Shown in pieces: positions 9,836 to 63,283 of a stretch of 64,000 nt of DNA. The notes under the pieces are model-generated. The model was not told the origin of the DNA. It saw nothing but the letters and a program-made list of their open reading frames with translations, and did no database searches. Both the position numbers and the translations under genes were made by a program. Source of the stretch: a virus; the IMG/VR virus record IMGVR_UViG_3300026078_000024, positions 28,878-92,877 of that record, one strand, 5' to 3'. Each line of letters starts with the position of its first letter. The first letter of the stretch is position 1.

Positions 9836-9988
9836 TGATCATGTCTTGACCTGGGCAAATCCCGCTCAGCACCACCCCTATCCACTCATAGGGGGGACCT
9901 CAAACGATCTCGTTAGCGGGGCAGCCAGAGGTTTTCTCACCCTACGTGTTGGTAACTTCTCTTATTTTCACGCTGGGTGTCCGGATAC
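9836..9988 (+). repeat. dispersed ~150-bp intergenic element, copy 1
   Basis: Core AAACGATCTCGTTAGCGGGGCAGCCAGAGGTTTT (9902-9935) is identical in the copies at 44.8 and 63.2 kb. Confidence 0.95.
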
Positions 9989-10020
9989 CCGGCCGCATGG
10001 ACGCATATCCATGCGGCCGG
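9989..10020 (-). terminator. terminator hairpin
   Basis: CCGGCCGCATGGA-CGCATA-TCCATGCGGCCGG immediately after the stop at 10028. Confidence 0.7.
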
Positions 10021-10027
10021 GTGTGGA

Positions 10028-10837
10028 TCACGCCTCGATCCGCTTCGACCTGCGGTTCGCGTTGTAGATCTCCACCGTCCGGTAGTACGCGGCCTGCGGG
10101 AGGGACAGAGACGGCCACGCGCGGTAGGTGTCGTGCACCTGGCTGAAGAACTTGTTGAAGCCGAGCTTCGCCAGCTTGGTCACGAACCCCGCCGTGTCGA
10201 GGCCACCGTGGGAAGCGTAGAGGCCCCCGATACCGTTGATCGACTCACCGCACACCGCGCCGACCTGACCCGGCCATGCAGCGTCGATCACCGCGAAGGT
10301 CCGGTCGAGGGTGGCGCCGGTCCCGTCGGCGAAGTAGATCTTCTTTGCGGCAGAGATCGCGTTGAACCGGCGCTGCCCCTTCTCCGCCGTACCGGCAACC
10401 GCCCAGTTGTACTTCGCGGCGATGTTCCGGATGTTGACCGCCCACTCCTCCTCCGCCACGAGAGCGATGCGGAAGGTGTCCAGCGGGGTGACCGCCTTCC
10501 GGTTGTTGTGCTTGAGGAACATCGCGGCCTCCTCCTGGAGGGTGAGGCCGGTGTAGACGTCCGCCGGGATCGTGCACGTGGTGGTGTCCACCCCGCACAC
10601 CGCCTTGAGGGCGTTCCAGCGAGTCTGCCCGTCGAGGATGATCCATTCCTCCTTGGCGTCTCCACCGATCATCGCCAGGCCGGGGACGCGGTGCGAGACG
10701 GTGATCGTCCCGACGTAGAGATCGTTCCAGTTGGCGGCGATCTCTGCGACCCGGCGCGGGTCCACAATCCGCTGAACGCGCGGGTCTATCGAGAGCTGGG
10801 CTGCGGACAGCTCCAGCGTTTCCTTGGTGATCCCCAT
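10028..10837 (-). CDS. ParB/Srx-fold DGQHR-like domain protein
   Basis: IDPRVQR...GTITVS...IILDGQTR...EEAAMF..HN. Confidence 0.7.
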   Translation of the reverse strand: MGITKETLELSAAQLSIDPRVQRIVDPRRVAEIAANWNDLYVGTITVSHRVPGLAMIGGDAKEEWIILDGQTRWNALKAVCGVDTTTCTIPADVYTGLTLQEEAAMFLKHNNRKAVTPLDTFRIALVAEEEWAVNIRNIAAKYNWAVAGTAEKGQRRFNAISAAKKIYFADGTGATLDRTFAVIDAAWPGQVGAVCGESINGIGGLYASHGGLDTAGFVTKLAKLGFNKFFSQVHDTYRAWPSLSLPQAAYYRTVEIYNANRRSKRIEA

Positions 10838-10843
10838 GATCCC

Positions 10844-11839
10844 TTACTTGCCTTCCTCGGTTCCCTCGCCGTTCTTCGCGGCCAGGTCGATCTTGTTGAG
10901 TGCGGTGGAGAGGAGCGCGGGCTGCTTGCCCGGCAGGGTCCACTCCGGGACCAGAACCTCGGACAGGAGGGTGAGGAGCTGGGACGCGGCGCGGCGCGAC
11001 TCCTCAAGATCCTTGACGAACGACCGGAGATCGTCTCCGTCCAGTTCCTTGATCTTGTCCTTGTTGTCGGTCCAGAACTTGTTGATCAGGACCACGTCCC
11101 GGATGCCGGACTGGTGGCCGGTCATGTGGCCCTTCATGGACAGGACCGGGTTGACCTTCCTCGCCGGGGACTGCTTGGTCTTGAGGGTCTCGCGCCGGGT
11201 CACCGCGTCGGCGGGCTTCGAGTCGGCCATGACCTCTTCCTGCTCCTCCGGCGGAAGATCGGCGATCCGGTCGGCCGCGTTGAGGGTGAGGTCCCCGTCG
11301 CGGACGGCCTTCTGAACCTTCGGGGTGGCCCGCTTGCGGACCTTCGCGGCCTTCGCCATGCCCCGGACCGTGGCGCCGGTCTCCTTCGCGATCACCTTCC
11401 GGGTCTTGGGCTCATCCGTGGTGCCGGGCTGCATCTCGGTCTTGCTCTTCGCGGCGTTCCGGTTGCCCGGCTTCCCGCCCCACCCCAGTTCTTCGAGGGC
11501 CTGGGCGGCGAAGTCGATCTGTCCCTGGGAGAGGTGACGCCGGACCACGTTGTGTGACCAGACGTAGTCGGCCGGGTCGCGGCCCGGCCACTTCTGGTCG
11601 AACTTGATCTCCGTGTGCGGCATCCGCTCGGCGACCGGCAGGTCCTTGTTGATCTCTTCGATCGCCAGGTACCGGTTGCGGCCGTCGAGGATCAGGCCCT
11701 CGAACATCACGATGGGGTCCATCTGGCCGTTGGCCCGGATGTCCTTGACCAGTTCGGCGAACTCCGCTTCTCCCAGGAGGGGGAAGACGTTCGCGAGACG
11801 GTGGAACCGAGGGTTTTCCTCGGGGGAGGTGGTGGTCAT
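10844..11839 (-). CDS. ParB-like N-terminal domain protein with HTH
   Basis: LVKDIRANGQMDPIVMFEGLILDGRNRYLA, N..RRHLS, HTH region. Confidence 0.8.
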   Translation of the reverse strand: MTTTSPEENPRFHRLANVFPLLGEAEFAELVKDIRANGQMDPIVMFEGLILDGRNRYLAIEEINKDLPVAERMPHTEIKFDQKWPGRDPADYVWSHNVVRRHLSQGQIDFAAQALEELGWGGKPGNRNAAKSKTEMQPGTTDEPKTRKVIAKETGATVRGMAKAAKVRKRATPKVQKAVRDGDLTLNAADRIADLPPEEQEEVMADSKPADAVTRRETLKTKQSPARKVNPVLSMKGHMTGHQSGIRDVVLINKFWTDNKDKIKELDGDDLRSFVKDLEESRRAASQLLTLLSEVLVPEWTLPGKQPALLSTALNKIDLAAKNGEGTEEGK

Positions 11840-12066
11840 GAACGGTGCCCCTTCTGGGCGAGGTAGTCGGCGGTCAGGCGGACCAGGGTCTCCTGGTCCA
11901 GTGGATCGTGCGTCTCCAGCCATTCCTTGATCGCCTGGCGCACGATGTATCCGAGCTTGGTTTCCCGGCGGACGGCGACGTCGTCGAGATGAGCGCGTGT
12001 CACGGGGTTGGTGACCACGGTCAACATCTCCGTGAGGCGCTCCTCTTCCTGTAGCTTCTTTGGCAT
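11836..12066 (-). CDS. ribbon-helix-helix DNA-binding protein
   Basis: MLTVVT...LDDVAVRRETKLGYIVRQAIKEWL; ATG 6 nt after TATGAT (leaderless). Confidence 0.65.
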   Translation of the reverse strand: MPKKLQEEERLTEMLTVVTNPVTRAHLDDVAVRRETKLGYIVRQAIKEWLETHDPLDQETLVRLTADYLAQKGHRS

Positions 12067-12120
12067 ACCCCCATCATACGACACCACCCCAGAAGATAAG
12101 AGATCTTGTTGGAGGGCACC

Positions 12121-19938: not shown

Positions 19939-20175
19939 ATGGACTTTCTGACGTGGTGCCGGTCGAGCGACCGGTGGCGTTCGCATGCATGGGCCAATGA
20001 TCGTCGTGTCCGGCTGCCCGCAGACACCCCCGAGACCCGGGAGGCGTACGAGGAGACCTTCGTCTCCGCCGGGTACGGCGGATACCTGCACCGGCTCGCG
20101 GAGGAGACGGTGCACACCGGGTCGTCCGCATGGGCGGAGTACGTCACGGCCATGGGTGCGGAGGGCGGCTCATGA
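19939..20175 (+). CDS. hypothetical protein
   Basis: ATGA overlap with the replicase start. Confidence 0.55.
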   Translation: MDFLTWCRSSDRWRSHAWANDRRVRLPADTPETREAYEETFVSAGYGGYLHRLAEETVHTGSSAWAEYVTAMGAEGGS

Positions 20176-23100
20176 CCACGGATGCGGAGATCGCTCAGCA
20201 GAACGGTCATGTGGAGGGGGCTCAGGAGAGGGTCCTCGACGCCCTCGGGCACCCGTTCTCCCCCGAGTCGCTGCGAGTGCTGGCGGAGTCGGCGATCACA
20301 CCGGAGACGGCGGCACGGTACGGGATCACCGCCGTGGCGGATCCCGATCACATCCCTGACGAGATCTTCGGATCGTGGCACGCGTTCCTCGGCGAGGCCG
20401 AGACCGGCATGATCTTCACCTGGCGGGACACCGACCGGGAGATCCCTCAGTACCGTCCGGACGTGGCGGTGCAGACGCCGGACGAGAAGATCCACAAATA
20501 CCTCGTCCCGCGCGACTCCGGCACCTTCCTCAACCATCTGCGGAACCCCGTCGGCCCGGACGACCCGGTGTTGTTCGTGGAGGGGTCGAAGCAAGGCGTG
20601 GCTGCGGCAGCGTGGGCCCCGGAGGGGTGGGGGGTTGTGGCGGTACCCGGGTGCAACAACTGGGTCGGCACAGACCTCTCATGGGCCGACGGCCGCAAGG
20701 TGATCATTCTCTTCGATGCGGACTTCACGTCGAACCGTGACGTGTACGACGCGGCAGCCGGGCTGAAGGAGGCGCTGGAGGTCGAGGGCGCGGCGGAGGT
20801 GCGGTTCGCGCATCTCGCCGGGGCACGCAACAAGGACGGTCTCGACGACGTTCTCGGACGGCGGCCGGAGAACCGGCGGACCCTGTACATCGAACGGATC
20901 GCCGACATGGCGGCCGACCGTCTCGGACGGCGGCCCACCCGTTCCGTGCGCGCATCCGCGTATTTCGACGAGAAGGGCCTGTTGGCCCGGACGTCCGCCC
21001 TCACCGTTCTCGGCAATCAACCGGCGGCCCTCGCGGACGGATCCATGATCGCTCTGTACCGGGACGGCGTGTACCGGATCGATCTCGGGGACGAACCGCT
21101 GATCGAACAGGTCAAGGATCTCCTGGGTGAGGACTACCGGCCCGCGCACCGGAAGACGATCGAGGAATATCTCGTCGGCGAGCTGTCCGGTCGAAACCTC
21201 CGGGTCGGGCAGAGGTCCACGGAACCGCTCCTGAACACCGCGTCGTGCATGATCGACCTCCGCACCGGCGAGGTACTGGATCATGATCCGAAATACCTGA
21301 GCACGTTGCAGATCCCGGTCCCGTGGGTGCCGGACGCGGCGTGTCCGACGTACGAGGCGTGGCTTGAGGACGTGATCCCCGGCCAGGCCGAGGCACTGGA
21401 GGAACTCGCGTCCACGATGCTCGACCCGTCCCGGACGCCCTTCAAGGCGGCGTTCCTCTACGGGCCGACGCACTCCGGCAAGTCGACGTTCCTGCGGATC
21501 ATGGAAGCGGTCGCGGGTGCGGCGAACCGGTCGGCCGTCGATCTCCACCAGCTCGTCGATGATCATTTCATGTCTGCCGAGCTGTATCAGAAGATCTTGA
21601 ACATCGGGTCCGACATGTCAGCCGCCCACATCTCCGACGTCTCCCTGTTCAAGAAACTCACCGGCGAGGACCCGGTGCAGGCGAACCGGAAATACGGCCG
21701 GACGTTCACCTTCACGAACCGCGCCCTGTTCGCCTTCTCCGCAAACGAGATCCCCACCGTCGGCGAGACCTCCCGGGCGTACGTGCAACGCATGATGCCA
21801 TTCCACTTCTTCAACTCGTTCGCCGGTAACGAACGGCCGGAAATTGAAGAGCGGATGCTCCGCGAGGAACTCCCGGGGATTCTCCGCCGCTGGGTCTCGG
21901 CGTGGCGCCGGTTCTCCGAACGCGGGATCTACCTACCGGTTCCGGAGGACGTGCAGACGGAGTTCGAGACGTCGAGCGACCGAGTCGCCCGGTGGGTGCA
22001 GCTCCGGTGCGACGTGCACCCCGAGGCAATCGGGCAGATGGTCGGCGCGGACAAGGGAGAGACGATCTCCGCTCTCTACTCCTCATTCAAGATCTGGGCG
22101 AGGGAGGACGGACCGGCAAACGTCATGTCACGGCAGAAGTTCTCGGAGCGTCTCCGGCGCATGGATGGGGTCGGGGAGGTACGTCTCGCGCACCGGAACA
22201 AGAACCGGGGTCTGAACATCACCACGCGGACCGGAGAGGACCGGGAGATCGTTCATGTCCGTTCTGCCCCAGTGACTGACGGAGATGACCGGAATGCCCC
22301 GGTGACTGACGCGGATGACCCGAAGGCTTCCGGTACTGACGGAGATGACCGGAATGCCCCGGTGACTGACGCGGACGCACCAAATGAACCGGTGTCTACC
22401 AAGAACGTACGGAATGACAGCAATGTCGGTGTCCGTTCTGCCCCAGTCTCTACCGGAAACGTGACGGTTCGTCCCGGTGTGGGTGTGGGTGGTGTTGGTC
22501 GAACCCCGGTAAAGGGCATAGCAGTGGTTCAGAACAAGATCAACGATCTTTCCTCTGAAACTCCCTCATGGACCGAATTCTCTGATAAGACCCACACCGC
22601 CAACACCGCCCAGGTCAGAGATGGTTCTTATACTCACACCGAAGTCACACCCCCCAGGTCAGGGGCCACACCAAGACCCACACCGGGGCAAACCGGTACA
22701 TCTCCGATAGACACTGGGGCAAAACCGGACACCCCCGCTCCCGCGCCCCCCGACAAGACAGGACCGGCCGTGACTTCGAAAACACCCACACTTCCCACAC
22801 CCCCCAGGTCAGAGCACTGCCCCGACCCGTTCGCCGACCACACCCCGCCTCCGTCCGCCGTGCCGGTGGGTCTCGACCTGGAGGCATGGGACGCGGAAGA
22901 TCTCTTCCGTCACGACACCCCGGTCCTCGGTCCGTACGTCCGTCTCGTGGGTGCCGGTCCGGTCGGAGACGTGGCCACCGGTCGCGCGGAGGTTCTCGAA
23001 CGCATCCGGGGAGACAACCCGATCGTGGGCGTGAACCTCGCCCTGTTCGATCTCCCCGCCCTTGACGTGCACGAGGGGATCCCGGTGGAGGAGACGATCC

Positions 23101-24587
23101 CCCGGGCGCATGACATCCGGTTCGTGGCATTCCAGGACGACCCGCCGACGAGTTACGAGACGAAAGCCGGGCCGCATTACAAGCACTACAACCTGGAATC
23201 GCTCGCCAATCGGTATCTCGACGACCACAAGTCGGATCTCGGAAAGGCACTCGCCAAAGAATACGGCGGGTGGGGACATATCGCGTACGAGGACGCGCGG
23301 TATCACGACTACTGCCGGGACGACGTAAACAAGGCTCTCCGTCTCGCGGACGTCCTCCCCATGACCGACTACGACCGGCGGGAAATGCGCGTGGCCGCGA
23401 TCCTGGCGCGCGCGTCCATCGAGGGGTTCCGGGTGGACGTCCCGGCCCTCGAACGGCGGATCACGGAGCAGGCGGAGCAGACGGCCGCCGGTCGGCAGAT
23501 GCTCCACGACCGGTTCGGGTTCCCCACCCACACCGCCGACGGGAAGAACGTTTCGAAGGCCCCGCAACGGACGGTGGCGGGGAAGAGGGCGTTCGAGGAG
23601 GCGCTGAAGTCGTTCGGTGTGGATCTAGGTGACTGGCCCCGTGGCAAGGACGGGTCCCTCTCCCTCGGCAAAGAGATCATGGCCGAGGCGATCGTGTGGG
23701 CGGAGACGGAGAACCATCCCGCCCTGGCGATCATGAAGGCGGTCGCCGAGATGAACGGCCTCCGCTCGAACGCGGCCAACATCATGCGGTGCGTGGTGGG
23801 GGACCGGGTCCACCCGAGGTTCGAACCGTTCCAAGCGTTCGGCCGGTGGTCGGTCACCGAGCCGGGCCTGACGGTGCTCAAGAAGAGCTACGAGGACTCC
23901 GACCGGATCTTCATGCTGCCCGACCCGGGCGAGGCTCTCGTGTCGTTCGACGCGGACCAAGTGGACATCCGGTGCGTGGCGTTCCACTCCCAGGACCCAG
24001 GTCTCCTCGCGATCATGCAGGACCCGGACCGGGACATCCACTCCGAGATCTCCGATCTCGCGTTCGGCGATCATGAACCCGATCACCGGTTCCACGCCAA
24101 GTCGTGCGACCTGGGATGGCTGTACGGCCGCACCGTCAACGGTCTGGCCAACACCCCGGGGATCACCCGCGAGGCGGCCGAACGGGTGGACATGACGATG
24201 CGGACGCAGTTCAACTCCGTGCCGGACTGGCAGCATGACGTGCGGCGGGCGGCAGAGGGCCGCGCGTTGCTCGACAACGGGTTCGGGAGGCACTTCCGGT
24301 GCGACGAGGGCAGGGAGTACACCCAGGCACCGGCGGGACACGGTCAGTCGATGACACGGGACGTGGTGGCCGAAGGACTCCTGCGCATGAAGGACCGGCA
24401 CCCCGAACTGATCCCCCGTCTCCGCGTCGTCGTCCATGACGAGATCGTGATGTCCATCCCCAGGGCTGATCTTGAGGACGTGAAGCGGGCGGTGATCGAG
24501 GATATGACGATCGAACGGGGCGGCGTGCCGTTCACGTGGGGATCTTCCCCCGCCGGAGACAACTGGGCCGAGTGCTACAAGAAGTGA
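20172..24587 (+). CDS. primase (TOPRIM)-SF3 helicase-family A DNA polymerase fusion
   Basis: LFVEGSKQ / ILFDAD / DGLDD TOPRIM; GPTHSGKST D5-type helicase; GLDLEA exonuclease; SFDADQVDIR, HAKSCDLGWLYG, VVHDEIV PolA motifs A, B and C. Confidence 0.92.
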   Translation: MTTDAEIAQQNGHVEGAQERVLDALGHPFSPESLRVLAESAITPETAARYGITAVADPDHIPDEIFGSWHAFLGEAETGMIFTWRDTDREIPQYRPDVAVQTPDEKIHKYLVPRDSGTFLNHLRNPVGPDDPVLFVEGSKQGVAAAAWAPEGWGVVAVPGCNNWVGTDLSWADGRKVIILFDADFTSNRDVYDAAAGLKEALEVEGAAEVRFAHLAGARNKDGLDDVLGRRPENRRTLYIERIADMAADRLGRRPTRSVRASAYFDEKGLLARTSALTVLGNQPAALADGSMIALYRDGVYRIDLGDEPLIEQVKDLLGEDYRPAHRKTIEEYLVGELSGRNLRVGQRSTEPLLNTASCMIDLRTGEVLDHDPKYLSTLQIPVPWVPDAACPTYEAWLEDVIPGQAEALEELASTMLDPSRTPFKAAFLYGPTHSGKSTFLRIMEAVAGAANRSAVDLHQLVDDHFMSAELYQKILNIGSDMSAAHISDVSLFKKLTGEDPVQANRKYGRTFTFTNRALFAFSANEIPTVGETSRAYVQRMMPFHFFNSFAGNERPEIEERMLREELPGILRRWVSAWRRFSERGIYLPVPEDVQTEFETSSDRVARWVQLRCDVHPEAIGQMVGADKGETISALYSSFKIWAREDGPANVMSRQKFSERLRRMDGVGEVRLAHRNKNRGLNITTRTGEDREIVHVRSAPVTDGDDRNAPVTDADDPKASGTDGDDRNAPVTDADAPNEPVSTKNVRNDSNVGVRSAPVSTGNVTVRPGVGVGGVGRTPVKGIAVVQNKINDLSSETPSWTEFSDKTHTANTAQVRDGSYTHTEVTPPRSGATPRPTPGQTGTSPIDTGAKPDTPAPAPPDKTGPAVTSKTPTLPTPPRSEHCPDPFADHTPPPSAVPVGLDLEAWDAEDLFRHDTPVLGPYVRLVGAGPVGDVATGRAEVLERIRGDNPIVGVNLALFDLPALDVHEGIPVEETIPRAHDIRFVAFQDDPPTSYETKAGPHYKHYNLESLANRYLDDHKSDLGKALAKEYGGWGHIAYEDARYHDYCRDDVNKALRLADVLPMTDYDRREMRVAAILARASIEGFRVDVPALERRITEQAEQTAAGRQMLHDRFGFPTHTADGKNVSKAPQRTVAGKRAFEEALKSFGVDLGDWPRGKDGSLSLGKEIMAEAIVWAETENHPALAIMKAVAEMNGLRSNAANIMRCVVGDRVHPRFEPFQAFGRWSVTEPGLTVLKKSYEDSDRIFMLPDPGEALVSFDADQVDIRCVAFHSQDPGLLAIMQDPDRDIHSEISDLAFGDHEPDHRFHAKSCDLGWLYGRTVNGLANTPGITREAAERVDMTMRTQFNSVPDWQHDVRRAAEGRALLDNGFGRHFRCDEGREYTQAPAGHGQSMTRDVVAEGLLRMKDRHPELIPRLRVVVHDEIVMSIPRADLEDVKRAVIEDMTIERGGVPFTWGSSPAGDNWAECYKK
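22266..22415 (+). repeat. five degenerate 30-bp tandem repeats inside the replicase linker
   Basis: GCCCCAGTGACTGACGGAGATGACCGGAAT-type units encoding APVTDGDDRN / APVTDADDPK and variants. Confidence 0.85.
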
Positions 24588-25087: not shown

Positions 25088-26001
25088 TCCTTCTCTGGTT
25101 CAAGATCATCTCGTACAAGATCTACAAGATGATCACCAAGGAACCCTCGAACCGTGCCGACACAGGGGCAGAGATCGATGTTCCGCGCGCACACGTGAGC
25201 TGTGATCATTGCCTGCACGAGGCGCACGACCGGTCGTGTGCGGAGTGCGGGTGCACGGCGCGACCGGACCTCCCGGACGGGGATGCAGGCGTGCATGTCG
25301 GCCTCGACCCGTCCGCTCCCGGCGGTATCGCTCCGGTGTTCGCCCGGGACGCCCTCCGTCTGGCGGCTCTCGACGAGGACCGCCGGGCGCGGGAGGAGGC
25401 CGCCGGTCTCGACCCGTCACGGTGCCCGTGCGGCGGCCGTCACTTCCCCTCCGCCGACGCGTGCCGGTGGTGCCTGTGCCACGACCCGAGCCGGGTGAAC
25501 CACCTGAGCCAGGAAGCGGTGGACCGTCTCCGGTACGACATGAGCGTCCCCCCGTTCCCGACCCACCCCGTGGCAGAGATCATCCGGAACAGCTACCGTC
25601 CGTGCTCGGTGTGCGGCGCGCCGGACCATGCCGGGGTGACCCACCCCGGGACCGTGGACGGGATCATGGACACCGGGCGCGAGCGGTTCCCCGGACTGGA
25701 GACGATCACCCCGGAGGACGTCCACGCCGAGATCATGGACAGCTCGCCCGCTAAAGAGATCGTTGTGTGTGGCAGGTGTGGTCACCCCGACCACGGGGCC
25801 GGAGACGGCCGCTGCGCCTTCCAGGTGGCAAGCCGGATGCAGGACGAGGGGTTCCACATGTGCCCCTGCACCGTTCCCCGACATGACCCGCACAAGTGCG
25901 AGCATCAGGTGAGTGAGCATGTGGACAGCGGCTGCATGGTGACCGGCTGCCGGTGCGAGTCCTCGTACGGCACGGCTTGCGGCCGGGAGGGGAACTCATG
26001 A
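25084..26001 (+). CDS. multi-Zn-finger Cys/His-rich protein
   Basis: Repeated CxxCxH...C.C units. Confidence 0.65.
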   Translation: MILLWFKIISYKIYKMITKEPSNRADTGAEIDVPRAHVSCDHCLHEAHDRSCAECGCTARPDLPDGDAGVHVGLDPSAPGGIAPVFARDALRLAALDEDRRAREEAAGLDPSRCPCGGRHFPSADACRWCLCHDPSRVNHLSQEAVDRLRYDMSVPPFPTHPVAEIIRNSYRPCSVCGAPDHAGVTHPGTVDGIMDTGRERFPGLETITPEDVHAEIMDSSPAKEIVVCGRCGHPDHGAGDGRCAFQVASRMQDEGFHMCPCTVPRHDPHKCEHQVSEHVDSGCMVTGCRCESSYGTACGREGNS

Positions 26002-26400: not shown

Positions 26401-26864
26401 GGGCGCGCCGTGCCGAGCACCCGGGGATCACGTTCCGGTCCAAGCTCGAAGCCCAGTGGTCGGCGATCTTCGATGAGATGGGGTGGACATGGGAGTACGA
26501 GCCCGTCCGGTTCGATCTTCCGTCCGGGATCTACATTCCCGACTTCAAGATCCGCCCACGGGCCGGTGATCCGTTCTGGGTGGAGATCAAAGGACCATGG
26601 CCGAACGCCCGTGAGTTCGAGGTGGCGACGGAAGTCAACATCTACGCACAGACTCCGTTGATCATTCTGTCCGGAGACGTGCCACGGCAGATCAACGGCG
26701 GCACGGCGTGGTGGTTCGACCCGGCAACCGACCGGTGGTCCATGCTGCGCTCCGAGGAGGGCCTGATCCGGGTGTTGTGGCCGGACGCGGCCGACCGGCC
26801 GGAACGTCTCGCCGGGTGGGATGACGTCCTGGAGAACGGACGCCGGGCGGAGATCATCACATGA
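26397..26864 (+). CDS. PD-(D/E)xK endonuclease
   Basis: FRSKLEAQW...WEYEP...YIPDF...WVEIKG. Confidence 0.85.
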   Translation: MRARRAEHPGITFRSKLEAQWSAIFDEMGWTWEYEPVRFDLPSGIYIPDFKIRPRAGDPFWVEIKGPWPNAREFEVATEVNIYAQTPLIILSGDVPRQINGGTAWWFDPATDRWSMLRSEEGLIRVLWPDAADRPERLAGWDDVLENGRRAEIIT

Positions 26865-26910
26865 GGCGACGTGGTCGCCGGACCTACTCAACGAGGAGCC
26901 CTGATGGATC

Positions 26911-27063
26911 ATGTGCTACATCCCGCGCTGGTACGAGACGGTTCGCGAGGCGAATGAGATCATGCTCCGGCAGTGGCGCCGGGGCGACTGGCGGTTCGGT
27001 CATGTGGAGTGGTGTGCGCAGCACCACGCCTACCACCTCATGAAGGGCGTGGTCCGTGTTTGA
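26911..27063 (+). CDS. hypothetical protein (50 aa)
   Basis: Hand-read MCYIPRWYETV...HVEWCAQHHAYHL; fills a gap. Confidence 0.4.
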   Translation: MCYIPRWYETVREANEIMLRQWRRGDWRFGHVEWCAQHHAYHLMKGVVRV

Positions 27064-27271
27064 GGAACTGAAGATCAGGATCAGACAACGGGGGATCGAT
27101 GTGTTCGGCACGGTGCACGTCGTGCAGCTCGAAATGCCGATGATCGATTACGACACGGACGGTGTGCCGGAGAACGTGGAGGCGTTGATCCGGAAGATCT
27201 TCGAAGAGAAGTTCCCCGGCGCGGTGCAGGACCCGTTCACCGAGGTGGACCGGGATACCCTCCGGCCATGA
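27056..27271 (+). CDS. hypothetical protein
   Basis: Operon packing. Confidence 0.5.
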   Translation: MFEELKIRIRQRGIDVFGTVHVVQLEMPMIDYDTDGVPENVEALIRKIFEEKFPGAVQDPFTEVDRDTLRP

Positions 27272-27427
27272 ACAATCCTTCGGATGTTCTTCCGAACAAA
27301 GAACTGAAGGCACTGGCGGCACATCACCGCCGGTGCCTTCTCTGCCGCTATCTGTTCGGGTGCCGTGTCTCCGACCGTCTCCTCACCGCATATCATCACT
27401 CCGTTCACATCCCCATGGAGGCGCCCG

Positions 27428-28813
27428 GTGCTCCGGTTCCTGCGGTACGAGAAGATCCCCCTCGACGAGCTTGATCTCTTCCCCGGCAACGCGAACGTCG
27501 GCAACGTCCCGGCGATCGTGGAGTCCTTGATCGAGAATTCACAGTTCCGCAGTCTGATCGTTCGCGAGGTGGACGGGCGGCACGTGGTCATGGCCGGGAA
27601 CCATACGAAGCTGGCCATGGTCGAACACGGCGCACAGCTCTGCGACCGGGCGCGGCGGCACGCCGAGAACCCGGACGACAACCCTGCGTGCGGCCTGTGC
27701 GTGGACGATCAACCGTTCGACGGTCGGCCACGGTGCGAGATCTACGAATGCGACGACGACGATGCGATCAAGGTCAACGTCGCGGACAACCGGATCCAGG
27801 AGTTCGGGCACCGGGACGATCAGCTTCTGGCCGACCAGCTCGGCACGTTGGAAGATCTCGCGGGCACCGGTTACGACTACCACGACTACGAGTCGATCAC
27901 GCACCGCCTCTTGGAGGGCAGCTACATAGATCAGCAGACGGCGGAGGTACTGGCCACCCAGGAACCGGTGAGCGCCCCGGAGCCGGGAAGCCAGGCACCA
28001 CCCGACCCCCCTCGGGTCATCTCCCGCACCGTCCCCCTCGACGCCATGTTCTGTTGCCGCTACAACTCGATCTCCCTCGCGGCGTACGAGATGGGTTTCC
28101 TGCCCGGCATGATCTCGTCCAAGACCGATGCCTGGCGCAAGATCCTGGACCGCAACCCAGGCATCCGTATCGGTCTCATGGACAACGACTGGCACGACTA
28201 CGATCATGCCGCGCACATCGCCGGGGTGACGGAGGCGAAACCGAAATACGCCACGGTCCGGGACGTCATGACCAAGGCGCAGTGCGAGGCGGCCGGGGTG
28301 GAGTTCTTCCCGGTCGAACAGATCCTGGACATGGCGGCCGAGGTCGCGGAACACGCCGACCACGTGATCGTGATCCCGAAGTACGACTGCCTTGACAAGA
28401 TCCCCGAAGAGTACGTGATCGGGTTCTCCGTGCCCACGTCCTACGGCGGTACCCCCATGCCCGCCTCGATGCTCCAAGGACGCCGGGTCCACCTCCTCGG
28501 CGGATCATGGAAGAACCAGCGCGCGTTCCTGGAGATCCTCGGCGAGGACGTGGTGTCTCTGGACAACAACCACGTCTTGAGGATCTGCGAGTTCGGGAAC
28601 TTCTCGTTCCCCGACGGGTCCACGTCCCGTCTCGCCAATCTCGACCCACGGATGCCGCGCACCTGGCAGGCCGCCGCGATCTTGTCTCTTGCCTCCATCC
28701 GGGACGAACTCAACGCCCGGTATGCGGCAGGGATCACGTCGGCGGCCGACGAGGTGCCGGACGTGACGGAGTACGTGCACGACGATCAAGAGGACAACGA
28801 GGAGACGGAATGA
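27428..28813 (+). CDS. ParB/Srx N-domain fused to a TGT-like domain; candidate DpdA-type DNA deazaguanine transglycosylase
   Basis: N-terminus PGNAN.GNV..IVESL...AGNHT...ADNR; C-terminus YATVRD, VIVIPK, RRVHLLGGS, VSLDNN; directly upstream of queF/C/D/E and folE. Confidence 0.65.
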   Translation: MLRFLRYEKIPLDELDLFPGNANVGNVPAIVESLIENSQFRSLIVREVDGRHVVMAGNHTKLAMVEHGAQLCDRARRHAENPDDNPACGLCVDDQPFDGRPRCEIYECDDDDAIKVNVADNRIQEFGHRDDQLLADQLGTLEDLAGTGYDYHDYESITHRLLEGSYIDQQTAEVLATQEPVSAPEPGSQAPPDPPRVISRTVPLDAMFCCRYNSISLAAYEMGFLPGMISSKTDAWRKILDRNPGIRIGLMDNDWHDYDHAAHIAGVTEAKPKYATVRDVMTKAQCEAAGVEFFPVEQILDMAAEVAEHADHVIVIPKYDCLDKIPEEYVIGFSVPTSYGGTPMPASMLQGRRVHLLGGSWKNQRAFLEILGEDVVSLDNNHVLRICEFGNFSFPDGSTSRLANLDPRMPRTWQAAAILSLASIRDELNARYAAGITSAADEVPDVTEYVHDDQEDNEETE

Positions 28814-35592: not shown

Positions 35593-35665
35593 TCGGGTGG
35601 GTGAGACTCGAACTCACGATCTCTGGTTCCCGAAACCAGTGCCTTACCACCTTGGCCACCACCCG
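35593..35665 (-). tRNA. tRNA-Pro (anticodon CGG)
   Basis: CGGGTGG/CCACCCG acceptor stem, D arm GCCAAGGTGGTAAGGC, CTGGT-TTCGGGA-ACCAG anticodon arm, GTGAG-TTCGAGT-CTCAC T arm; CCA not encoded. Confidence 0.92.
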
Positions 35666-44342: not shown

Positions 44343-44623
44343 CCGAACCGCAAGGACCCCCGCCGTTCGACCCGGCTCACCCGTCCGTCTCGAACCAGGT
44401 TCCGGCGTGGCTGTTCACCGGCCGCCACAAGGGCCCGCAGGGTGATCTTCTCCTCTTGACGATCAGGGTCCCGAACGCCACCGTGACGGCGGTCATGAGC
44501 AAGGCTGACGGAGAGGCTTGGATCAAGCAGATCCAGGGGGAGTTGGATCAGATGTCCTCTTTGACCCTCGCCCCGGCCAACACACCCCTGCCTCCCATGA
44601 ATGGCAAACTGCCCGGTCCCTGA
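44339..44623 (+). CDS. hypothetical protein
   Basis: GTGA overlap; followed by a hairpin. Confidence 0.6.
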   Translation: MTEPQGPPPFDPAHPSVSNQVPAWLFTGRHKGPQGDLLLLTIRVPNATVTAVMSKADGEAWIKQIQGELDQMSSLTLAPANTPLPPMNGKLPGP

Positions 44624-44653
44624 TCTACACTGGGCAGTGCCTATCCGGGTCAT

Positions 44654-44690
44654 GAGGCCCCGGCGGTCTTGATCCCTCCGCCGGGGCTTC
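44654..44690 (+). terminator. terminator hairpin
   Basis: GAGGCCCCGGCGG...CCGCCGGGGCTTC. Confidence 0.65.
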
Positions 44691-44718
44691 GTTGTGTCTA
44701 TGCACCGGGATGAATGGC

Positions 44719-44869
44719 TATCCGGTCACCCAGCGCGAAAATAAGACATGTTACCAATACGTAGGGTGAAAAAACCTCTGGCTGCCCCGCTAACGAGATC
44801 GTTTAGGGTCCAAGGTATGAGTGGATAGGGGACCTGCTGAGCGGGATTTGCCCTGGTCAGCGCTTGATC
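44719..44869 (-). repeat. dispersed ~150-bp intergenic element, copy 2 (inverted)
   Basis: Core reverse complement at 44771-44804. Confidence 0.95.
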
Positions 44870-44913
44870 GTCTTCTTGATATTACCGAGCGGTAACCGGA
44901 TCTTGCATAACCA

Positions 44914-45276
44914 TCACCGGGTCAAGATGATCACTACGGTCATGATCCCCACGATCGCGCCGACGGCTGTGATGATCCATCCGTACGCGGCGCCGATTCC
45001 CGAGCCGCGCCCCTCCGCCCGGGTCACCCGGCGGGCAAGATCGTTCACGATCTTTTCGAGGGCGTCGAGTTGATCAGTGGTCGCTACCCCGGTCCGCAGT
45101 TCGTTGAGCAACTCGAACCGCTTGTCGGCGGACATCTCGGCCTTGTCGACGGCCTCCTTCGCGGCCAGCAGCGCGGCCTCGACCGCCTTCCCGCTCGCCT
45201 CGTAACGCTCTTGGTACCGGCGGTCTCGTTCGTCGATGATCTCCCGGAGGTGATCACACTCGGGACACTCGGACAT
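44914..45276 (-). CDS. coiled-coil protein with C-terminal transmembrane segment
   Basis: AKEAVDKAE..ADKRFE..NE.R, transmembrane tail. Confidence 0.7.
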   Translation of the reverse strand: MSECPECDHLREIIDERDRRYQERYEASGKAVEAALLAAKEAVDKAEMSADKRFELLNELRTGVATTDQLDALEKIVNDLARRVTRAEGRGSGIGAAYGWIITAVGAIVGIMTVVIILTR

Positions 45277-56503: not shown

Positions 56504-58849
56504 ATGGGCCTTGTTCAGACGAAACAGGGCTCTGCCGCTTCTGGCTCGCTGACCATCACACTCGACGCGCCAACGACGGCGGGCAATGCCCTGATCGTCA
56601 TCCTCGCGTCGTCGGGCACCACGACCAACCCCACCTCGGTCTCCTCGATCACCCTGGGTGGCAGTGCCGGTAACTTCGTCTCGGTCAGTACCTTCGGGTC
56701 GGCATCCGACGCGGCGATCGGCGCGACCTGGCTCGACCTGAACTGTGTGGGCGGACAGACCTCCGTCGCTATCACCATGTCCGGCGGCTCCGGGACGATC
56801 GCGACCCTGGCCACGGTGTACGAGTGGTCCGGGTTGGTCGCGGCCAGCGCGTTCGACAAGACGTCCGGCGGAGTGAGCGCCGGGTCGACCTCGTGGACGT
56901 CCGGCACGACGGCGGCCGTCTCCCAGCCGTCCGAACTCCTGATCGGCGGATCCTTCGTCACGGTGTCCGGCAGTTCTCCGACGATCACCGGGCCCACCTC
57001 CCCGTGGAACAACCTCTCCCAGGTGTCCCAGGCGCAGGGGTCGTTCAACGACGCATGGATGAGCGGATATCAGGTGATCTCCTCGGGAGGCACCGCCACC
57101 TATTCGGGCACCGTCTCTCCGTCGAGCCAGTCGATCTCCCAGGTCAACACGTTCAAATTGCTGGTGGCCGAACCCACCCCCATGCTGCCGCTCTTCCTGC
57201 CCGGCGATGATCCCTTCAGCGGGATCAAGCCGTGGGGCGGGGTGGACGACTGGCAGCACGACGTGACCGTGATCGCCGGAGTGGCGTCGATCAAGTTCGA
57301 GGCCCCGACGTTCAACAACACCATGCTGCTCTTGGCTCTCGCCAATGAACGCGGCATGGGTGCGCGGGGAATCGGCGTCGATGATCCGGACGTCCGGCTC
57401 GATCCCCTCCTCACCCCGGACGACGTCACCGGCGGCATGGCTCCCTGGGGCGGCGCTCCGGACTCCGGCACCGTCTCGGCCGTGTCGGTGAACGCCGGAG
57501 TAGCCTCGGTCTCGTTCTCCGCCCAGGCGCCGACGGCGGGGATCTCGGCCCTGCCCGGCCAGGCGGCGATGACGATCACCGGGCAGGGACCGACGGCGGG
57601 CGTGGCGGCCCTCCCCGGCGCGTCCTCGGTTACCATCTCCTCTCAGGCCCCGGTCGTAGGTCTGAGCGCTCTTCCCGGATCGTCCGCTGTCGTCATCAGC
57701 GGGCAGTCGTCATCGGCGGGAATAGCTCCCACGGCCGGGGTGTCCTCGATCACCTTCTCCGCCAAGGACGCCCTTGCGGGTCCTGGTGGTGCCGCTGGCG
57801 TTGCGTCGATCACCTTCGCGGCCAAGGACGCGTCCACGGGTCTCGGGGTGAACGCGGGCGCGGCGGCCGTGTCGTTCTCCGCCCAGGCCCCAACGGCGGG
57901 CGTTACTGCCCTCCCGGGGGCCGCAGCCGTCTCGCTCACGGGTCAGCAGCCCATGGTGGGCCTGGGGGCCCTCCCCGGTACCGCTGCGGTCACCACGGCG
58001 GTCCAGCAGGACACGACCGGTCTCGGGGCGAACGCGGGCGCGGCGGCCGTCGCCTTCGCGGCCCTCCAGCCGACAGTGATCGCACTCGACGGGACCTACG
58101 ACCCCTCCCCGCCTCTCTTCCTGCCGGACGACCCGTACGGAGGGATCTTCCCGTGGGGCGGCGCAACAGACGGATTGATCACCGGAGATCTTTCCGTAGG
58201 TGCCGGGGTGGCGACGATCACGATCACCGCCCAGTCGCCGACGGCGGGGATCTCGGCCCTGCCCGGCACGGCAACGATGATCCAAACCTCTCAGTCGCCC
58301 GCTGCGGGCCTTTCAGCCCTGCCCGGGACCGGTTCCATCAACTTCACCGGAAACTCGCCTACGGCGGGAGCTGGGGCGCAAGCCGGGGCAGCCACGGTGA
58401 GTCTCTCCGCCCGTGCTCCGTCCGCCGGTGTCTCCGCCCTGCCGGGAACCGCTGCGGTCACCGTCTCCGGGGATCAGCCGTCGGTGGGGATCGCGCCGGT
58501 GGCGGGCGCGGCGGCCGTCGCCTTCACCGGCCGTTCCGCCCTCGCCGGTCCGGGCGGAACCGCTGGCGTTGCCAGCATCTCCTTCTCCGTCCCGGCGCCC
58601 CGCGTCGGCCTCGGGGCGGCCCCCGGCGTGGCGGCCGTCTCCTTCTCGGCCGTCAACGCCTCCGTGGTCCTCCCGCAGAGCGGAGCACCCACGGTGATCT
58701 CGGGACGGCAGCCGCTCGGCCAGCTGTACGGCCGGGAGCCGATCAGTCCTGCCACCGGCCGGGAGACCGGGCCGATCTCCGGTCGAGGAACGATATCTTC
58801 AACATCAGGAACTGAGCCCGACTCCACGATCAGCGGGAGGGAGCCATGA
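56504..58849 (+). CDS. fibre-like virion protein with ~20-aa repeats
   Basis: Repeats such as AGVASITFSAQAPTAGISALPG; PWGG motif three times. Confidence 0.75.
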   Translation: MGLVQTKQGSAASGSLTITLDAPTTAGNALIVILASSGTTTNPTSVSSITLGGSAGNFVSVSTFGSASDAAIGATWLDLNCVGGQTSVAITMSGGSGTIATLATVYEWSGLVAASAFDKTSGGVSAGSTSWTSGTTAAVSQPSELLIGGSFVTVSGSSPTITGPTSPWNNLSQVSQAQGSFNDAWMSGYQVISSGGTATYSGTVSPSSQSISQVNTFKLLVAEPTPMLPLFLPGDDPFSGIKPWGGVDDWQHDVTVIAGVASIKFEAPTFNNTMLLLALANERGMGARGIGVDDPDVRLDPLLTPDDVTGGMAPWGGAPDSGTVSAVSVNAGVASVSFSAQAPTAGISALPGQAAMTITGQGPTAGVAALPGASSVTISSQAPVVGLSALPGSSAVVISGQSSSAGIAPTAGVSSITFSAKDALAGPGGAAGVASITFAAKDASTGLGVNAGAAAVSFSAQAPTAGVTALPGAAAVSLTGQQPMVGLGALPGTAAVTTAVQQDTTGLGANAGAAAVAFAALQPTVIALDGTYDPSPPLFLPDDPYGGIFPWGGATDGLITGDLSVGAGVATITITAQSPTAGISALPGTATMIQTSQSPAAGLSALPGTGSINFTGNSPTAGAGAQAGAATVSLSARAPSAGVSALPGTAAVTVSGDQPSVGIAPVAGAAAVAFTGRSALAGPGGTAGVASISFSVPAPRVGLGAAPGVAAVSFSAVNASVVLPQSGAPTVISGRQPLGQLYGREPISPATGRETGPISGRGTISSTSGTEPDSTISGREP

Positions 58850-59596: not shown

Positions 59597-61357
59597 ATGC
59601 CCCTCGCACCGTTCCAGCCGTTCGACATTCCCGACTACTGGTGTGTCTTCGGCCACTCGTACATGCAGTACGCCTTCGGCACCTTCTACCAGACCGGCCG
59701 AGCCGACGCCCTGTTCTTCGCGACCATGGACACCGAACCGTTCAACAAGCAGAACTGGGCGGTCAACGGATCCCGGGCGTGCATCGAGGGGTACTCCACC
59801 GGCGGGTTCGCCCGGTTCTACAAGGGATCGAAGAAGCCGCAGCGCGGCGGCCCGTACGTGTCCAACGGCGGCGCCATGATGATCTGCTGGGGGATCAACG
59901 ATCTCGGCCTCGTCGGCAACACCACGCAGATCAAGACAGCCGTTCAGCACGCCTTCCGGGCGATCATCAGCCGGTGGCGCGCATCGGTGATCTACGAGAA
60001 CGACTTCCAGGTGGGCACGAGGACGTCGTACGGCGCCGGGTTCGGGTCCGTCTCGGCCCCCGGCTACACATCGAACGACACGGCCCACTGGTGCACTGCT
60101 ACCACGAACGCCAACTTCACCCTCACCCTCCCGTCCGACTACAACGGCGAGACGGTGGCCGTGACGCTGGTCGGTGCGGGCGGTGTCTCCGGCGGCATCG
60201 TCACCTGGGGCGGCACGACCGGCGTATCCGGCACCACCTCCACGTCGAACATCCTCCCGTCCTCCGCCGTGTCCCACTGCCCGGTGGTCAAGAGGTTCAC
60301 CGGCCTCACGTCCGCGAACGCCGGACAGACGATCACCGGCACGGTGAACACCCTCGACTCCGGCGGCGCGGTCATGCTCGATTTCTGGGCGCTGGAATCG
60401 CAGAACCCGGCCCCCATCATCGTCTGCAACACGGCCCGCCTCACCGCCTCCGGCTACACCACCAACTACCCGTCCTGGTCCGGCACCGAAGCGTCTCGTG
60501 ATCAGGACGTGGTCGACCTCAACGCCAACACCACGGCAGTGGTCGCGGAGTTCGATTCCATGGTCCAGATCGCCGACGTCGATTCTGTGATCAACAAGCA
60601 GGCATCGTTCCTGTTCTCCGACGGCCTGCACCCGAACGAATTCGGGTCGGCCGCGATCGTGGATGCGATCGCGGCGGCCCGGAAGAACCTGCGCCCCACG
60701 AACGCGTACAAGACCCGGAACTTCAACGTCCCGGCCCCGCGCGCGTCGGCCGTCCGGAAGCCTCGCCGGTCCGGTCTGTGGTACACCGCCGACAACGTCC
60801 CGCCCCCGGCCGCGACCACGGCCACGGTCGGTTCGGCCGGTGATCTCTGGGCGATCCCGGTGATCGTCACTGAGGCCACGGAGTTCTGGAACCGGCTCAC
60901 AATCGAAATGTCGTCCACGGCGACCACCGGCGCCACGATCCGCTGGGGGATCTACGACAATGTGGCCTGGGACGCGTACCCGGGCGAGATCGTCTCGGAG
61001 CCGACGGCGGCCTCCGGCCCTCTGTCGACCGGCACGACGGCGGCCGTGGTGCAGTCCCCCACCGGCGGTAACGGATCTTTCCAGACCGTCATGGACCCGG
61101 GGCTCTACTGGCTGAGTCTTCTCGTGGTCACCGTCGGATCGACTCCCAGTTGGAGAACGATCCAAGGACCGAACGGGGTCATGCCGAACACGTCCAGTAC
61201 GGGCGCTCTCGACCAGACCCTCGCCACGATCAAGAACGGATACAAGGCGACCGGTGTGGCCACGTCCGCCATGCCGACGAGCTGGCCGAGCGGCGGAACG
61301 GCGACCGCGAACGCGCCCTATATCGGGTTCCAGGTCAACATCAACGCGACGAACTGA
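59597..61357 (+). CDS. SGNH/GDSL hydrolase-domain virion protein
   Basis: FGHS (block I), AVNG, WGIND, DGLHPN. Confidence 0.8.
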   Translation: MPLAPFQPFDIPDYWCVFGHSYMQYAFGTFYQTGRADALFFATMDTEPFNKQNWAVNGSRACIEGYSTGGFARFYKGSKKPQRGGPYVSNGGAMMICWGINDLGLVGNTTQIKTAVQHAFRAIISRWRASVIYENDFQVGTRTSYGAGFGSVSAPGYTSNDTAHWCTATTNANFTLTLPSDYNGETVAVTLVGAGGVSGGIVTWGGTTGVSGTTSTSNILPSSAVSHCPVVKRFTGLTSANAGQTITGTVNTLDSGGAVMLDFWALESQNPAPIIVCNTARLTASGYTTNYPSWSGTEASRDQDVVDLNANTTAVVAEFDSMVQIADVDSVINKQASFLFSDGLHPNEFGSAAIVDAIAAARKNLRPTNAYKTRNFNVPAPRASAVRKPRRSGLWYTADNVPPPAATTATVGSAGDLWAIPVIVTEATEFWNRLTIEMSSTATTGATIRWGIYDNVAWDAYPGEIVSEPTAASGPLSTGTTAAVVQSPTGGNGSFQTVMDPGLYWLSLLVVTVGSTPSWRTIQGPNGVMPNTSSTGALDQTLATIKNGYKATGVATSAMPTSWPSGGTATANAPYIGFQVNINATN

Positions 61358-61366
61358 GGGACGATC

Positions 61367-62158
61367 ATGGCTACCACTGACTTCGGTCCTTGCGCCGACT
61401 GGCCCTGCCGGTGGATCTGTGACGTCTCGTCCGAGTCGCCGACGGCCACCGGCGCGGCCGTGACGGCTGCCACCTACGTCCTGTGGGCCCTCTCCGGTCG
61501 CCAGTACGGGACGTGCACGACCACTCTCCGGCCATGCCGCCGGGAGTGTTACGACGATGCCTGGTGGAACACGTACGCGGCCCCGTGGTCCACGTACACC
61601 GATTACGTCGGCTCCACCTACCCGTGGTTCGTTCTCGGGTGCGGCGGGTGCCGTGGCACCTGCTCCTGCTCGCAGATCTCCGAGGTGCTCCTCCCGTCCC
61701 CGGTCCAGTCGATCACCACGGTCAAGCTGGACGGGGTGGCAGCGCCGACCGGGTCCTACCGTCTCGACAACAACCGGCTGCTTGTCCGGACGGACGGCCA
61801 GGTCTGGCCCCGGTGCAACGATCTTTCCAAGGACGACACCCAGGCAGGGACGTGGTCGGTGACGGCGGTCTACGGCCAGCCGGTTCCGAAGATGGGTGAG
61901 GTCGCCATGGGCGAACTCGCCTGCGAGATCTTGAAGGCGATGAACGGCGAGGAGTGCCGCCTCCCTGCCGGAGTGACTCAGCTCACCCGGCAGGGGGTGT
62001 CGGTCTCCGTTCCCGATATCGGGTCGATCTTCTCGAACGGCCGGACCGGGTTGTATCTCGTCGACATGTTCCTGATCTCCGCCAACCCGAAAAAGATCAT
62101 GCAGCGCGGCCGGATCTTCTCGCCGGATAGGACGATCCACCGGAGGGCCGGGACGTGA
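61367..62158 (+). CDS. head-to-tail adaptor
   Basis: LWALSGRQYG.C...RPC, ELACE, RQGVS, TGL..VD. Confidence 0.8.
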   Translation: MATTDFGPCADWPCRWICDVSSESPTATGAAVTAATYVLWALSGRQYGTCTTTLRPCRRECYDDAWWNTYAAPWSTYTDYVGSTYPWFVLGCGGCRGTCSCSQISEVLLPSPVQSITTVKLDGVAAPTGSYRLDNNRLLVRTDGQVWPRCNDLSKDDTQAGTWSVTAVYGQPVPKMGEVAMGELACEILKAMNGEECRLPAGVTQLTRQGVSVSVPDIGSIFSNGRTGLYLVDMFLISANPKKIMQRGRIFSPDRTIHRRAGT

Positions 62159-62664
62159 GCCAGATCAAGGGCGACGACAAGTGGTTCCAGGTCTGCAACA
62201 TCATCCTGGGTGCGGCCAAGGCGGGGTTGGTCAAGCCGGTGAACCGGTACCTGATCACCACGGGGCAGATCGCCCATGACGACTGCTGTGACGGACAGCT
62301 CGCCGTCTCGTACACCCGGACCTCACCGACGGAGTCCTTCCCCACGGAACAGGTCACCAAGGTCGGCCTGGACTGTGACCCGGCGTACGAGATCGGGGAG
62401 ATCACTGTGTCGATCACCCGGTGTGCTCCGCAGGCCCTCAACAGCCAGAACGCCCCCTCACCTGACGCCCTGACGGCGCATGCCCAACAGAACATGATCG
62501 ACGCGAACCAAATCCGCCGGTCCGTGTCCGTGGCACTGTGCCAGGTGCACTCCGACATGACCTCGGGTCTGGACTACTTCGTCCGGTCACAGCTCATGAT
62601 CGGCCCCGAGGGCGCATGCGACGGCTCCGAACTGTACCTGTACGTCGGTCTCGCGGCAGGATGA
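62155..62664 (+). CDS. tail terminator-like protein
   Basis: DDCCDGQL, RCAP, GPEGAC; position in the operon. Confidence 0.65.
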   Translation: MSQIKGDDKWFQVCNIILGAAKAGLVKPVNRYLITTGQIAHDDCCDGQLAVSYTRTSPTESFPTEQVTKVGLDCDPAYEIGEITVSITRCAPQALNSQNAPSPDALTAHAQQNMIDANQIRRSVSVALCQVHSDMTSGLDYFVRSQLMIGPEGACDGSELYLYVGLAAG

Positions 62665-62668
62665 TCAC

Positions 62669-63058
62669 ATGGCACAGGATTTCGTGGTCGTGGACCCCCG
62701 CAAGGGGATGTTGCTGGCTGAACGGTCGGCGGTCGCCCTGGTGGCGCAGACGACGGAACGGGTTGCCATGGCGGCGCGCGCCATGGCGCCGGGATCCATG
62801 AAAACCAAGATCCGCGCCGTGCCGAGCAAGGGCATCGGACTGGTGATCAGTGATCACCCGGCGACGATGTTCGTGATCTACAAGACCAAGCCGCACATCA
62901 TCATGGCCAAGAGGGCGGGCGGCTACCTGAAGTTCCAGGTGAAGAACTCCAGTGACTTCACCTTCGTCGGTCCGTCTCCGCATCGGTTCGTCCGGCACCC
63001 GGGCAACCAGCATCCGAACAACTTCCTGCTCAAGGCCCTGGAAGCGTCCAAGTTCTGA
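62669..63058 (+). CDS. neck/HK97 gp10-like protein
   Basis: TKPHII, VRHPG..PNNFL..AL. Confidence 0.7.
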   Translation: MAQDFVVVDPRKGMLLAERSAVALVAQTTERVAMAARAMAPGSMKTKIRAVPSKGIGLVISDHPATMFVIYKTKPHIIMAKRAGGYLKFQVKNSSDFTFVGPSPHRFVRHPGNQHPNNFLLKALEASKF

Positions 63059-63128
63059 CGATCATGCAGGTCTGCATCTCTGGTGAGTTATGCAGTGGCA
63101 TGGCTTACGGTGTATAGCACGATCCAAA

Positions 63129-63283
63129 TGATCAAGCGCTGACCAGGTAAAACTCTTTTGATCTTACCCCTGGTCCACTCATACCTTGGACCCTAAACGA
63201 TCTCGTTAGCGGGGCAGCCAGAGGTTTTCTCACCCTACGTGTTGGTAACTTTTCTTATTACCACGCTGGGCAACCGGATACCC
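63129..63283 (+). repeat. dispersed ~150-bp intergenic element, copy 3
   Basis: Core at 63195-63228. Confidence 0.95.

Follow-up and report, generated by a model that had tools for sequence, protein, structure and literature searches.

A phage genome in IMG/VR, record IMGVR_UViG_3300026078_000024 (92,877 bp, rated 100% complete; hereafter, G000), carries four copies of a ~222-bp intergenic cassette, three of them in the 64,000-nucleotide stretch analyzed here (bases 28878–92877 of the record; hereafter, the window). The copies belong to a family with a fixed architecture, a constant kind of placement, a coordinated orientation and a patchy distribution among phages, and conserved RNA helices are absent from it. 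As judged from the databases searched, the family is undescribed and confined to one group of uncultured soil phages. Its copies look like DNA control sites bound by protein more than like folded small RNAs, given their fixed length, invariant blocks, repeated half-sites and position between a hairpin and a gene start. Our preferred reading, held tentatively and at somewhat less than an even chance, is that of a DNA-level, two-faced promoter/operator cassette at operon junctions, specific to this phage group, for which we infer promoter activity, a binding protein and switch logic.

A cassette of fixed length and architecture

Copy 1 occupies 9795–10017 (+) of the window, copy 2 occupies 44688–44910 (−), and copy 3, in the tail module, 63088–63310 (+). 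A sequence-only reading of the window had described the three as ~150-bp elements, richer in AT than coding DNA and built around an invariant 34-bp core. The core held up, with exactly three occurrences in the window, identical in copies 1–3 (9902–9935, +; 44771–44804, −; 63195–63228, +), and no match in 100 dinucleotide-preserving shuffles, as did the base composition (49–54% GC in the copies vs 65% in the genome). A repeat search of the window gave pairwise identities of 86–89% over 110–154 nt. The number and the length of the elements required correction: a search of the whole record added a fourth copy at genome positions 25467–25686 (+; locus L004, 1414–1633), 3.2 kb before the window, and alignment of the four copies extended the unit to ~222 bp, from TTATGC(A/G)G to just beyond a second G-N-ATA motif that lies a constant 15 nt beyond CCGGATA.

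Alignments that took in 32–50 copies from diverged phages show how rigid this unit is, with ~46 distinct copies fitting 222–226 columns nearly without gaps. The information profile has invariant or near-invariant blocks at columns 51–56 ((C/T)TGACC; 9848–9853, +, in copy 1), 120–121 (AG), 138–140 (a T-run), 144–151 (ACNCTACG), 157–159 (GTA), 162–163 (TT), 175–176 (AC), 185–192 (ACCGNATA) and 208–212 (GNATA). Within this series, ACNCTACG-N5-GTA(A/G)NTT forms an invariant core common to the whole family, at 9939–9958 (+) in copy 1.

A heptamer, C[CT]GNATA, recurs on both arms, in reverse at column 2 and forward at columns 186 and 206 in nearly every copy. Copy 1 has the reverse complement TATGCGG at its left end (9796–9802, −), CCGGATA at column 186 (9981–9987, +) and, 15 nt after it, the second right-arm motif GCATA (10003–10007, +), which falls in a hairpin loop in copies 1 and 4. 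The fourth base of the heptamer is the same in all three heptamers in several phages and differs among them in others. A reverse heptamer often stands at column 195 as well, producing a 16-bp palindrome, CCGNAT-N4-ATNCGG, that just 2 of 25 scored copies have in perfect form and many others in degenerate form; its N-N pair is the sole clearly covarying pair. Terminal inverted repeats had been thought missing, and short ones are present: TTATGCR on the left and YGCATAA on the right, 7–9 bp long and imperfect.

Two candidate features of the cassette were dropped. The palindrome AACGA-TC-TCGTT is unconserved, the nearest related lineage (G001) reading AAAGGATCTCGTT in its place, and GATC is as dense in the genome as in the cassettes. 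Across G000 as a whole GATC is over-represented 4.7-fold (1387 observed, 296 expected), and four related phages have a 2.3–3.2-fold excess.

A two-faced promoter as the preferred reading

The invariant center of the cassette reads as two candidate −10 hexamers that face apart, TAGNGT on the bottom strand (columns 149–144) and TA(A/G)NTT on the top strand (columns 158–163), each with an invariant T and A at its first two positions and each preceded by a G, which makes a two-faced promoter the most economical interpretation. The cassette comes immediately behind the hairpin that closes one gene cluster and immediately ahead of where the next begins, and a putative phage protein would bind its heptamers; candidates are the 269-aa DUF6551 protein, a 359-aa ParB-like protein, a 397-aa phrog_1362 protein and, encoded near copy 1, small zinc-ribbon and putative ribbon-helix-helix proteins. 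Leftward firing would yield a conserved leader of ~140 nt, the binding sites being upstream; rightward firing would yield one of ~60 nt and put the binding sites downstream of the start, so that a single bound protein could promote the use of one face while blocking the other. In any one genome, all ordinary operons would be served by one face and the tail module by the other. A promoter of this kind accounts for the occurrence of both orientations and for the separate face of the tail module. Copies group by genome, not by position, as expected if the sites co-evolve with a cognate factor or are homogenized.

With about four copies per genome heading late operons, the cassettes recall the late promoters of P2-type phages and of Mu, which are short and one-directional and have an activator site of dyad symmetry near −55; were the leftward face a promoter, the cassette palindrome would be centered near −56. 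The resemblance does not extend to sequence similarity, and the cassette promoter is putative.

Several observations count against a two-faced promoter. Hexamers of the TANNNT kind arise easily by chance in 222 bp, no TTGACA-like −35 block lies at a spacing of 16–18 bp on either strand, and a sigma-70 consensus scan found no promoter in copy 1. A promoter-operator region of 222 bp would be a large one. On neither face does copy 2 have a gene immediately downstream, and transcription from its leftward face would pass in antisense through a 120-aa gene on the way to the portal operon. Two lineages present opposite faces to the same kinds of operon and would need swapped regulatory logic, and the hairpins lack U-tracts and may not terminate transcription.

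Cassettes occupy operon junctions behind hairpins

With genes called from third-position GC, every copy is intergenic and packed between an upstream stop and a downstream start, which is typically 0–50 nt away. The sites are the starts of head, tail and accessory gene clusters. Among the 18 copies in genomes G003–G005 and G007, 9 are sense to the flanking genes, 7 antisense and 2 in divergent regions. Copies thus face both ways, and the earlier remark that a simple one-way promoter is insufficient was well founded. What stays constant is the hairpin: the strongest one nearby is on the side of the upstream gene regardless of the direction of the cassette, with averages of about −21 kcal/mol on the right and −13 on the left in antisense settings, and of about −21 on the left and −14 on the right in sense settings. 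Terminators had been placed at copies 1 and 2; hairpins do stand there, at the right (3′) end, and copy 4 has one as well.

Copy 1 is antisense to both of its neighbors, lying between the 3′ end of a DUF6551 gene (10028–10837, −) and the start codon, at 9792, of a gene for an 87-aa zinc-ribbon protein (−), whose ribosome-binding site is inside the left end of the cassette. A 14-bp G+C-rich hairpin (9984–10025, −28.5 kcal/mol) stands between its right end and the stop of the gene upstream, on the minus strand. Copy 2 abuts, at its left end, the stop codon of the 120-aa gene, which encodes a membrane protein (44914–45276, −); past its right end come a hairpin (44657–44687, −25.3 kcal/mol) and then a convergent plus-strand gene ending at 44623, with which the hairpin is shared. 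Just past this hairpin, at 44636–44650, is GACCCGGATAGGCAC, which holds the heptamer CCGGATA; this sequence is conserved in the related phage (L013/L014) and at loci L028, L034 and L035. Copy 3 lies in sense between a 129-aa gp10-like gene (62669–63058) and the tail assembly chaperone gene (63347–63799), and a small hairpin, ATGCAG-gt-CTGCAT (63064–63077), separates the gp10-like stop from its left end; relatives have another hairpin in that place. To the left of the fourth copy, TCAC(T/A)G is directly repeated 3–4 times at intervals of ~11–13 bp (L004, 1370–1412), and such repeats also occur at L015 and L031, just upstream of the left end of traB-side copies.

Two further sets of repeats in the window lie inside genes. 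Five or more tandem 30-bp repeats (22245–22457) fall within a gene for a 1485-aa fusion of primase, D5 helicase and family-A polymerase (20130–24587), and diverged repeats in a 60-nt register (57274–58652), probably tandem protein domains, fall within a 781-aa gene of the structural region (56504–58849).

Orientation is coordinated across each genome

With the structural genes setting the reading direction of each genome, the orientation of the cassettes follows a single rule. Those that precede the tail module have the opposite orientation to the tail-module copy (7/7), and those elsewhere in the genome have the same orientation as that copy (11/11), so that all 18 copies in seven genomes, at about ten insertion sites, conform. 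If the ten or so sites were independent, such a pattern would arise by chance about once in 500–1000 trials, a figure that the relatedness of the genomes makes generous. In G000, G001, G004, G005 and G006 the tail copy is sense and stands immediately ahead of the chaperone gene. For G003 and G007 the tail copy is antisense, three genes earlier, and all the other copies are flipped too. That lineages agree in gene order and yet differ by a flip of every copy speaks against roles set by an external direction; polarity of replication and polarity of the FtsK/KOPS type are both disfavored.

The rule raises the possibility, which we consider plausible enough to state and still rather doubtful, that the copies act jointly, either as a genome-wide two-state switch that sets the tail module against the other operons or as a source of complementary RNAs between operon transcripts. 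Neither a genome-wide switch nor an inter-operon set of complementary RNAs is known to have been described for phages.

The RNA version of this idea can be made specific. The cassettes would be promoterless and co-transcribed within long operon transcripts, the RNA of the tail copy would be complementary to that of the others, RNase III would cut the duplexes, which would couple tail-module expression to that of the other operons or separate the two, and the hairpin on the upstream side would protect the new 3′ end. Such a duplex network accounts most naturally for an orientation rule that tolerates flips: only relative orientation is conserved, and the tail copy is opposite in both lineages despite the full flip. 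All but one of the pairs formed with the tail copy of the same genome share perfect stretches of 20–57 nt, as against 9–20 nt between genomes, and the grouping of copies by genome points the same way. A fixed length and a lack of intramolecular helices would both be expected, and the tight packing leaves no room for external promoters. Against it, copy 2 and its counterpart in the related phage agree with the tail copy in sense when each is read against its own gene; a rule framed in terms of RNA sense therefore has exceptions, whereas one framed in terms of DNA orientation has none. Duplexes also leave the blocks that are invariant across lineages and the repeated heptamers unexplained, and the strong upstream hairpins may block read-through. 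On balance we regard a network of sense and antisense RNAs as unlikely.

The copies share no conserved RNA fold

The sequence-only reading had offered two functions, a multicopy small RNA and a nucleoprotein site. Independently transcribed, structured small RNA genes would be expected to leave a fold common to the family, and individual copies do fold into hairpins (z = −3.2, −2.0 and −2.6 for three of them); a strong hairpin ends copies 1, 2 and 4, and a few lineage-specific compensatory changes can be seen by eye in the left arm. Such signals do not extend to the family. Across 16 lineages the variable region gives fold z-scores between −3.2 and +1.1, averaging about −0.6, and no stacked covarying helices emerged when every pair of columns in 46 copies was scanned without bias. 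The best helices that could be built by hand pair 77.8% of cells vs 75.4% after shuffling and have 6 pairs changed on both sides vs 5.1 expected. The RNAalifold consensus energy is merely −2.9 kcal/mol (17 copies), and the structure conservation index is 0.21 in the sense and 0.30 in the antisense direction (31 copies).

Pairing of CCCGCT with AGCGGG, noted previously for copies 1 and 2, exists in two copies of G000 only and is not conserved in relatives. A long-range CUGAC/GUUAG helix was set aside: its pairing reaches 82.5% with no two-sided changes, and many relatives have GUUCG. Wobble (G-U) and A-C mismatches in the palindrome are independent of the strand expected to be transcribed. Rfam 15, searched with the window at gathering scores, returned a tRNA (35593–35665) as its sole match and nothing on a cassette, and a permissive Rfam scan of copy 1 gave only hairpin-type microRNA noise. 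The left end has no conserved promoter upstream of it and in copy 1 abuts a start codon, copy 3 lacks a terminator, and the side of the hairpin changes with context. No reading frame is open consistently across copies. We therefore consider small RNA genes very improbable, and of the two functions first offered the nucleoprotein site fits better, with its fixed length, invariant blocks and fixed heptamer positions, even if its link to ParB is weak.

The family is restricted to a group of uncultured phages

BLASTN with copy 1 found no match in 50,697 GenBank phage records or 72,556 PLSDB plasmids, and when 185,579 species genomes of bacteria and archaea (GTDB) were scanned with two patterns, the first gave zero matches and the second one chance match. 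That lone match, on a scaffold of a Gemmatimonadota metagenome-assembled genome, fails the family profile, and the scaffold has no proteins in common with the phage. Exact 21-mer and 20-mer searches of IMG/VR yielded nothing, and five 16-mer matches there are chance hits with merely 16–17 nt agreeing. G000 itself is far from cultured actinophages, with Streptomyces phage TurkishDelight among the nearest and the portal protein at most 36% identical.

Relatives of the cassette emerged from less exact searches. Proteins flanking the copies led to two related IMG/VR contigs (61–65% protein identity), which carry three copies in synteny, and a gapped pattern search found additional copies in IMG/VR and in 12 metagenome contigs. 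A tail-assembly-chaperone profile fetched 76 loci, 19 of which contain diverged copies by nhmmer, and a sequence-only covariance model, run on the whole records of another five genomes (67–88 kb), counted 5, 4, 3, 2 and 4 copies. Related IMG/VR phages and metagenome contigs typically have 3–5 copies to a genome, and eleven complete, equally related genomes have no cassette. The family matches no known promoter class and no repetitive extragenic palindrome or miniature inverted-repeat transposable element (MITE) family of hosts, and it is conserved in relatives.

One gene follows the cassette closely. Of the element-bearing genomes, 5 of 5 have the ParB-like DUF6551 gene, as does 1 of 8 element-free ones, and a copy lies directly downstream of this gene in G000, G004 and G005. 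PHROGs calls both this gene and its neighbor ParB-like, and the heptamer boxes on two arms, the 16-bp palindrome and the fixed spacing would suit a dispersed centromere-like or loading site at which phage ParB-like proteins join the two arms around a bent center. Precedents for boxes on two arms, for a copy beside a ParB-like gene and for sites scattered through a genome are the multi-box parS of P1 and the four dispersed centromere sites of N15; the cassette differs from them in being much longer and in that its ParB-like protein is of the DUF6551/DGQHR type. Proteins of that type may serve DNA modification instead of partition. Both the co-occurrence and the adjacency may reflect shared ancestry. 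The 397-aa phrog_1362 protein (L209, 455–1648, −; genome 20454–21647) has the same distribution as the DUF6551 gene, 5 of 5 cassette-bearing and 1 of 8 cassette-free genomes. G015 has the DUF6551 gene without a cassette, and G003 and G007 have no copy beside the gene. Placement by hairpins and gene starts and the coordinated orientation are left unexplained as well, and we judge a ParB-type site to be distinctly unlikely. In genomes without an adjoining cassette, the DUF6551 stop is followed by another conserved spacer of ~80 bp (within G015 26788–27700, G007 63800–63902 and G003 21630–21732) that contains the hairpin ATCCC-N3-5-GGGAT.

Filled and empty insertion sites

Comparison of genomes shows the cassette present at a given junction in some phages and absent from it in others. 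The junction between the gp10-like and chaperone genes holds a hairpin and a cassette in the G000 lineage and is empty in most relatives, in which the gp10-like stop is followed directly by CCGGAA(A/C)GATC(A/T)TG (the CCGGAAAGATC motif). The copy 2 junction is empty in G004. Upstream of a 350-aa gene, one syntenic region has the cassette in opposite orientations in two lineages. In a tree of nine core proteins, G000, G004 and G005 form one clade, and G003 and G007 are placed elsewhere, among cassette-free genomes.

CCGGAA(A/C)GATC(A/T)TG opens a 7-codon upstream frame ending Leu-Arg-stop (63319–63342 of the window, in the region 63307–63349). The TGA of this frame is a few bases ahead of the chaperone ATG, which has no Shine-Dalgarno sequence, an arrangement that suggests translational coupling of the two. 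A related motif occurs in most cassette-free relatives too (L040–L115, just upstream of position 2501).

These comparisons bear on the possibility that the cassette is a MITE-like, non-autonomous mobile element, perhaps carrying regulatory signals, that has spread within some phages and is tolerated only at operon boundaries. Filled and empty sites, insertion sites that vary among genomes, the region with both orientations, short terminal inverted motifs with subterminal repeats, the grouping of copies by genome, and bearers that are not monophyletic, with the 11 complete relatives lacking the element, would all fit. The Correia elements of Neisseria, which are MITEs with regulatory signals, and MPME, mobile elements of mycobacteriophages, are comparable in that the cassette is small, non-coding, multicopy and intergenic, with terminal inverted motifs and filled and empty sites. 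Unlike them, the cassette shows no target-site duplication, either in the four copies or in comparisons of filled with empty sites, and it is limited to phages, being absent from host-type genomes. No partner gene was found either: searches of the five bearer genomes for integrase, resolvase, IS200-type transposase and TnpB (PF00589, PF00239, PF01797, PF07282) were negative, with DDE families not searched. The interior is more conserved than the ends, the reverse of a typical MITE, orientation is coordinated and not random, and several sites are syntenic across phages of merely 45–65% protein identity. A mobile element seems to us improbable. Two more specific forms were rejected from the same searches of the five bearer genomes, an element derived from IS200/IS605 for want of a Y1 transposase or TnpB gene, and a site for site-specific recombination for want of a tyrosine or serine recombinase.

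Relation to other phage repeats

Actinophage genomes are well known to contain short recurring intergenic motifs, most of them without an explanation; among these are the SAS/ESAS of Cluster K, an 18-bp motif in EC, inverted repeats in EG and O, and a 50-bp motif in DJ, all 13–50 bp long, in a single direction relative to transcription and 14–30 bp from start codons (PMC7302621, PMC9671010). The cassette resembles these in being a group-specific, non-coding, multicopy repeat in short intergenic gaps near gene starts, with a presumed regulatory role. It is unlike them in its length of ~222 bp, its several sub-sites, its use of both orientations and their coordinated pattern.

Intergenic repeats are common in actinophages and almost none has a known function. 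Among them the cassette stands out as large, fixed in length and divided into recognizable sub-sites, with an orientation pattern that survives the complete flip of a lineage. That pattern leads to testable predictions about the units of expression and the timing of tail production in a large phage, and the cassette, which is compact, could become a useful bidirectional regulatory part. Its patchy, phage-only distribution provides a clean case for the spread of regulatory DNA between viruses.

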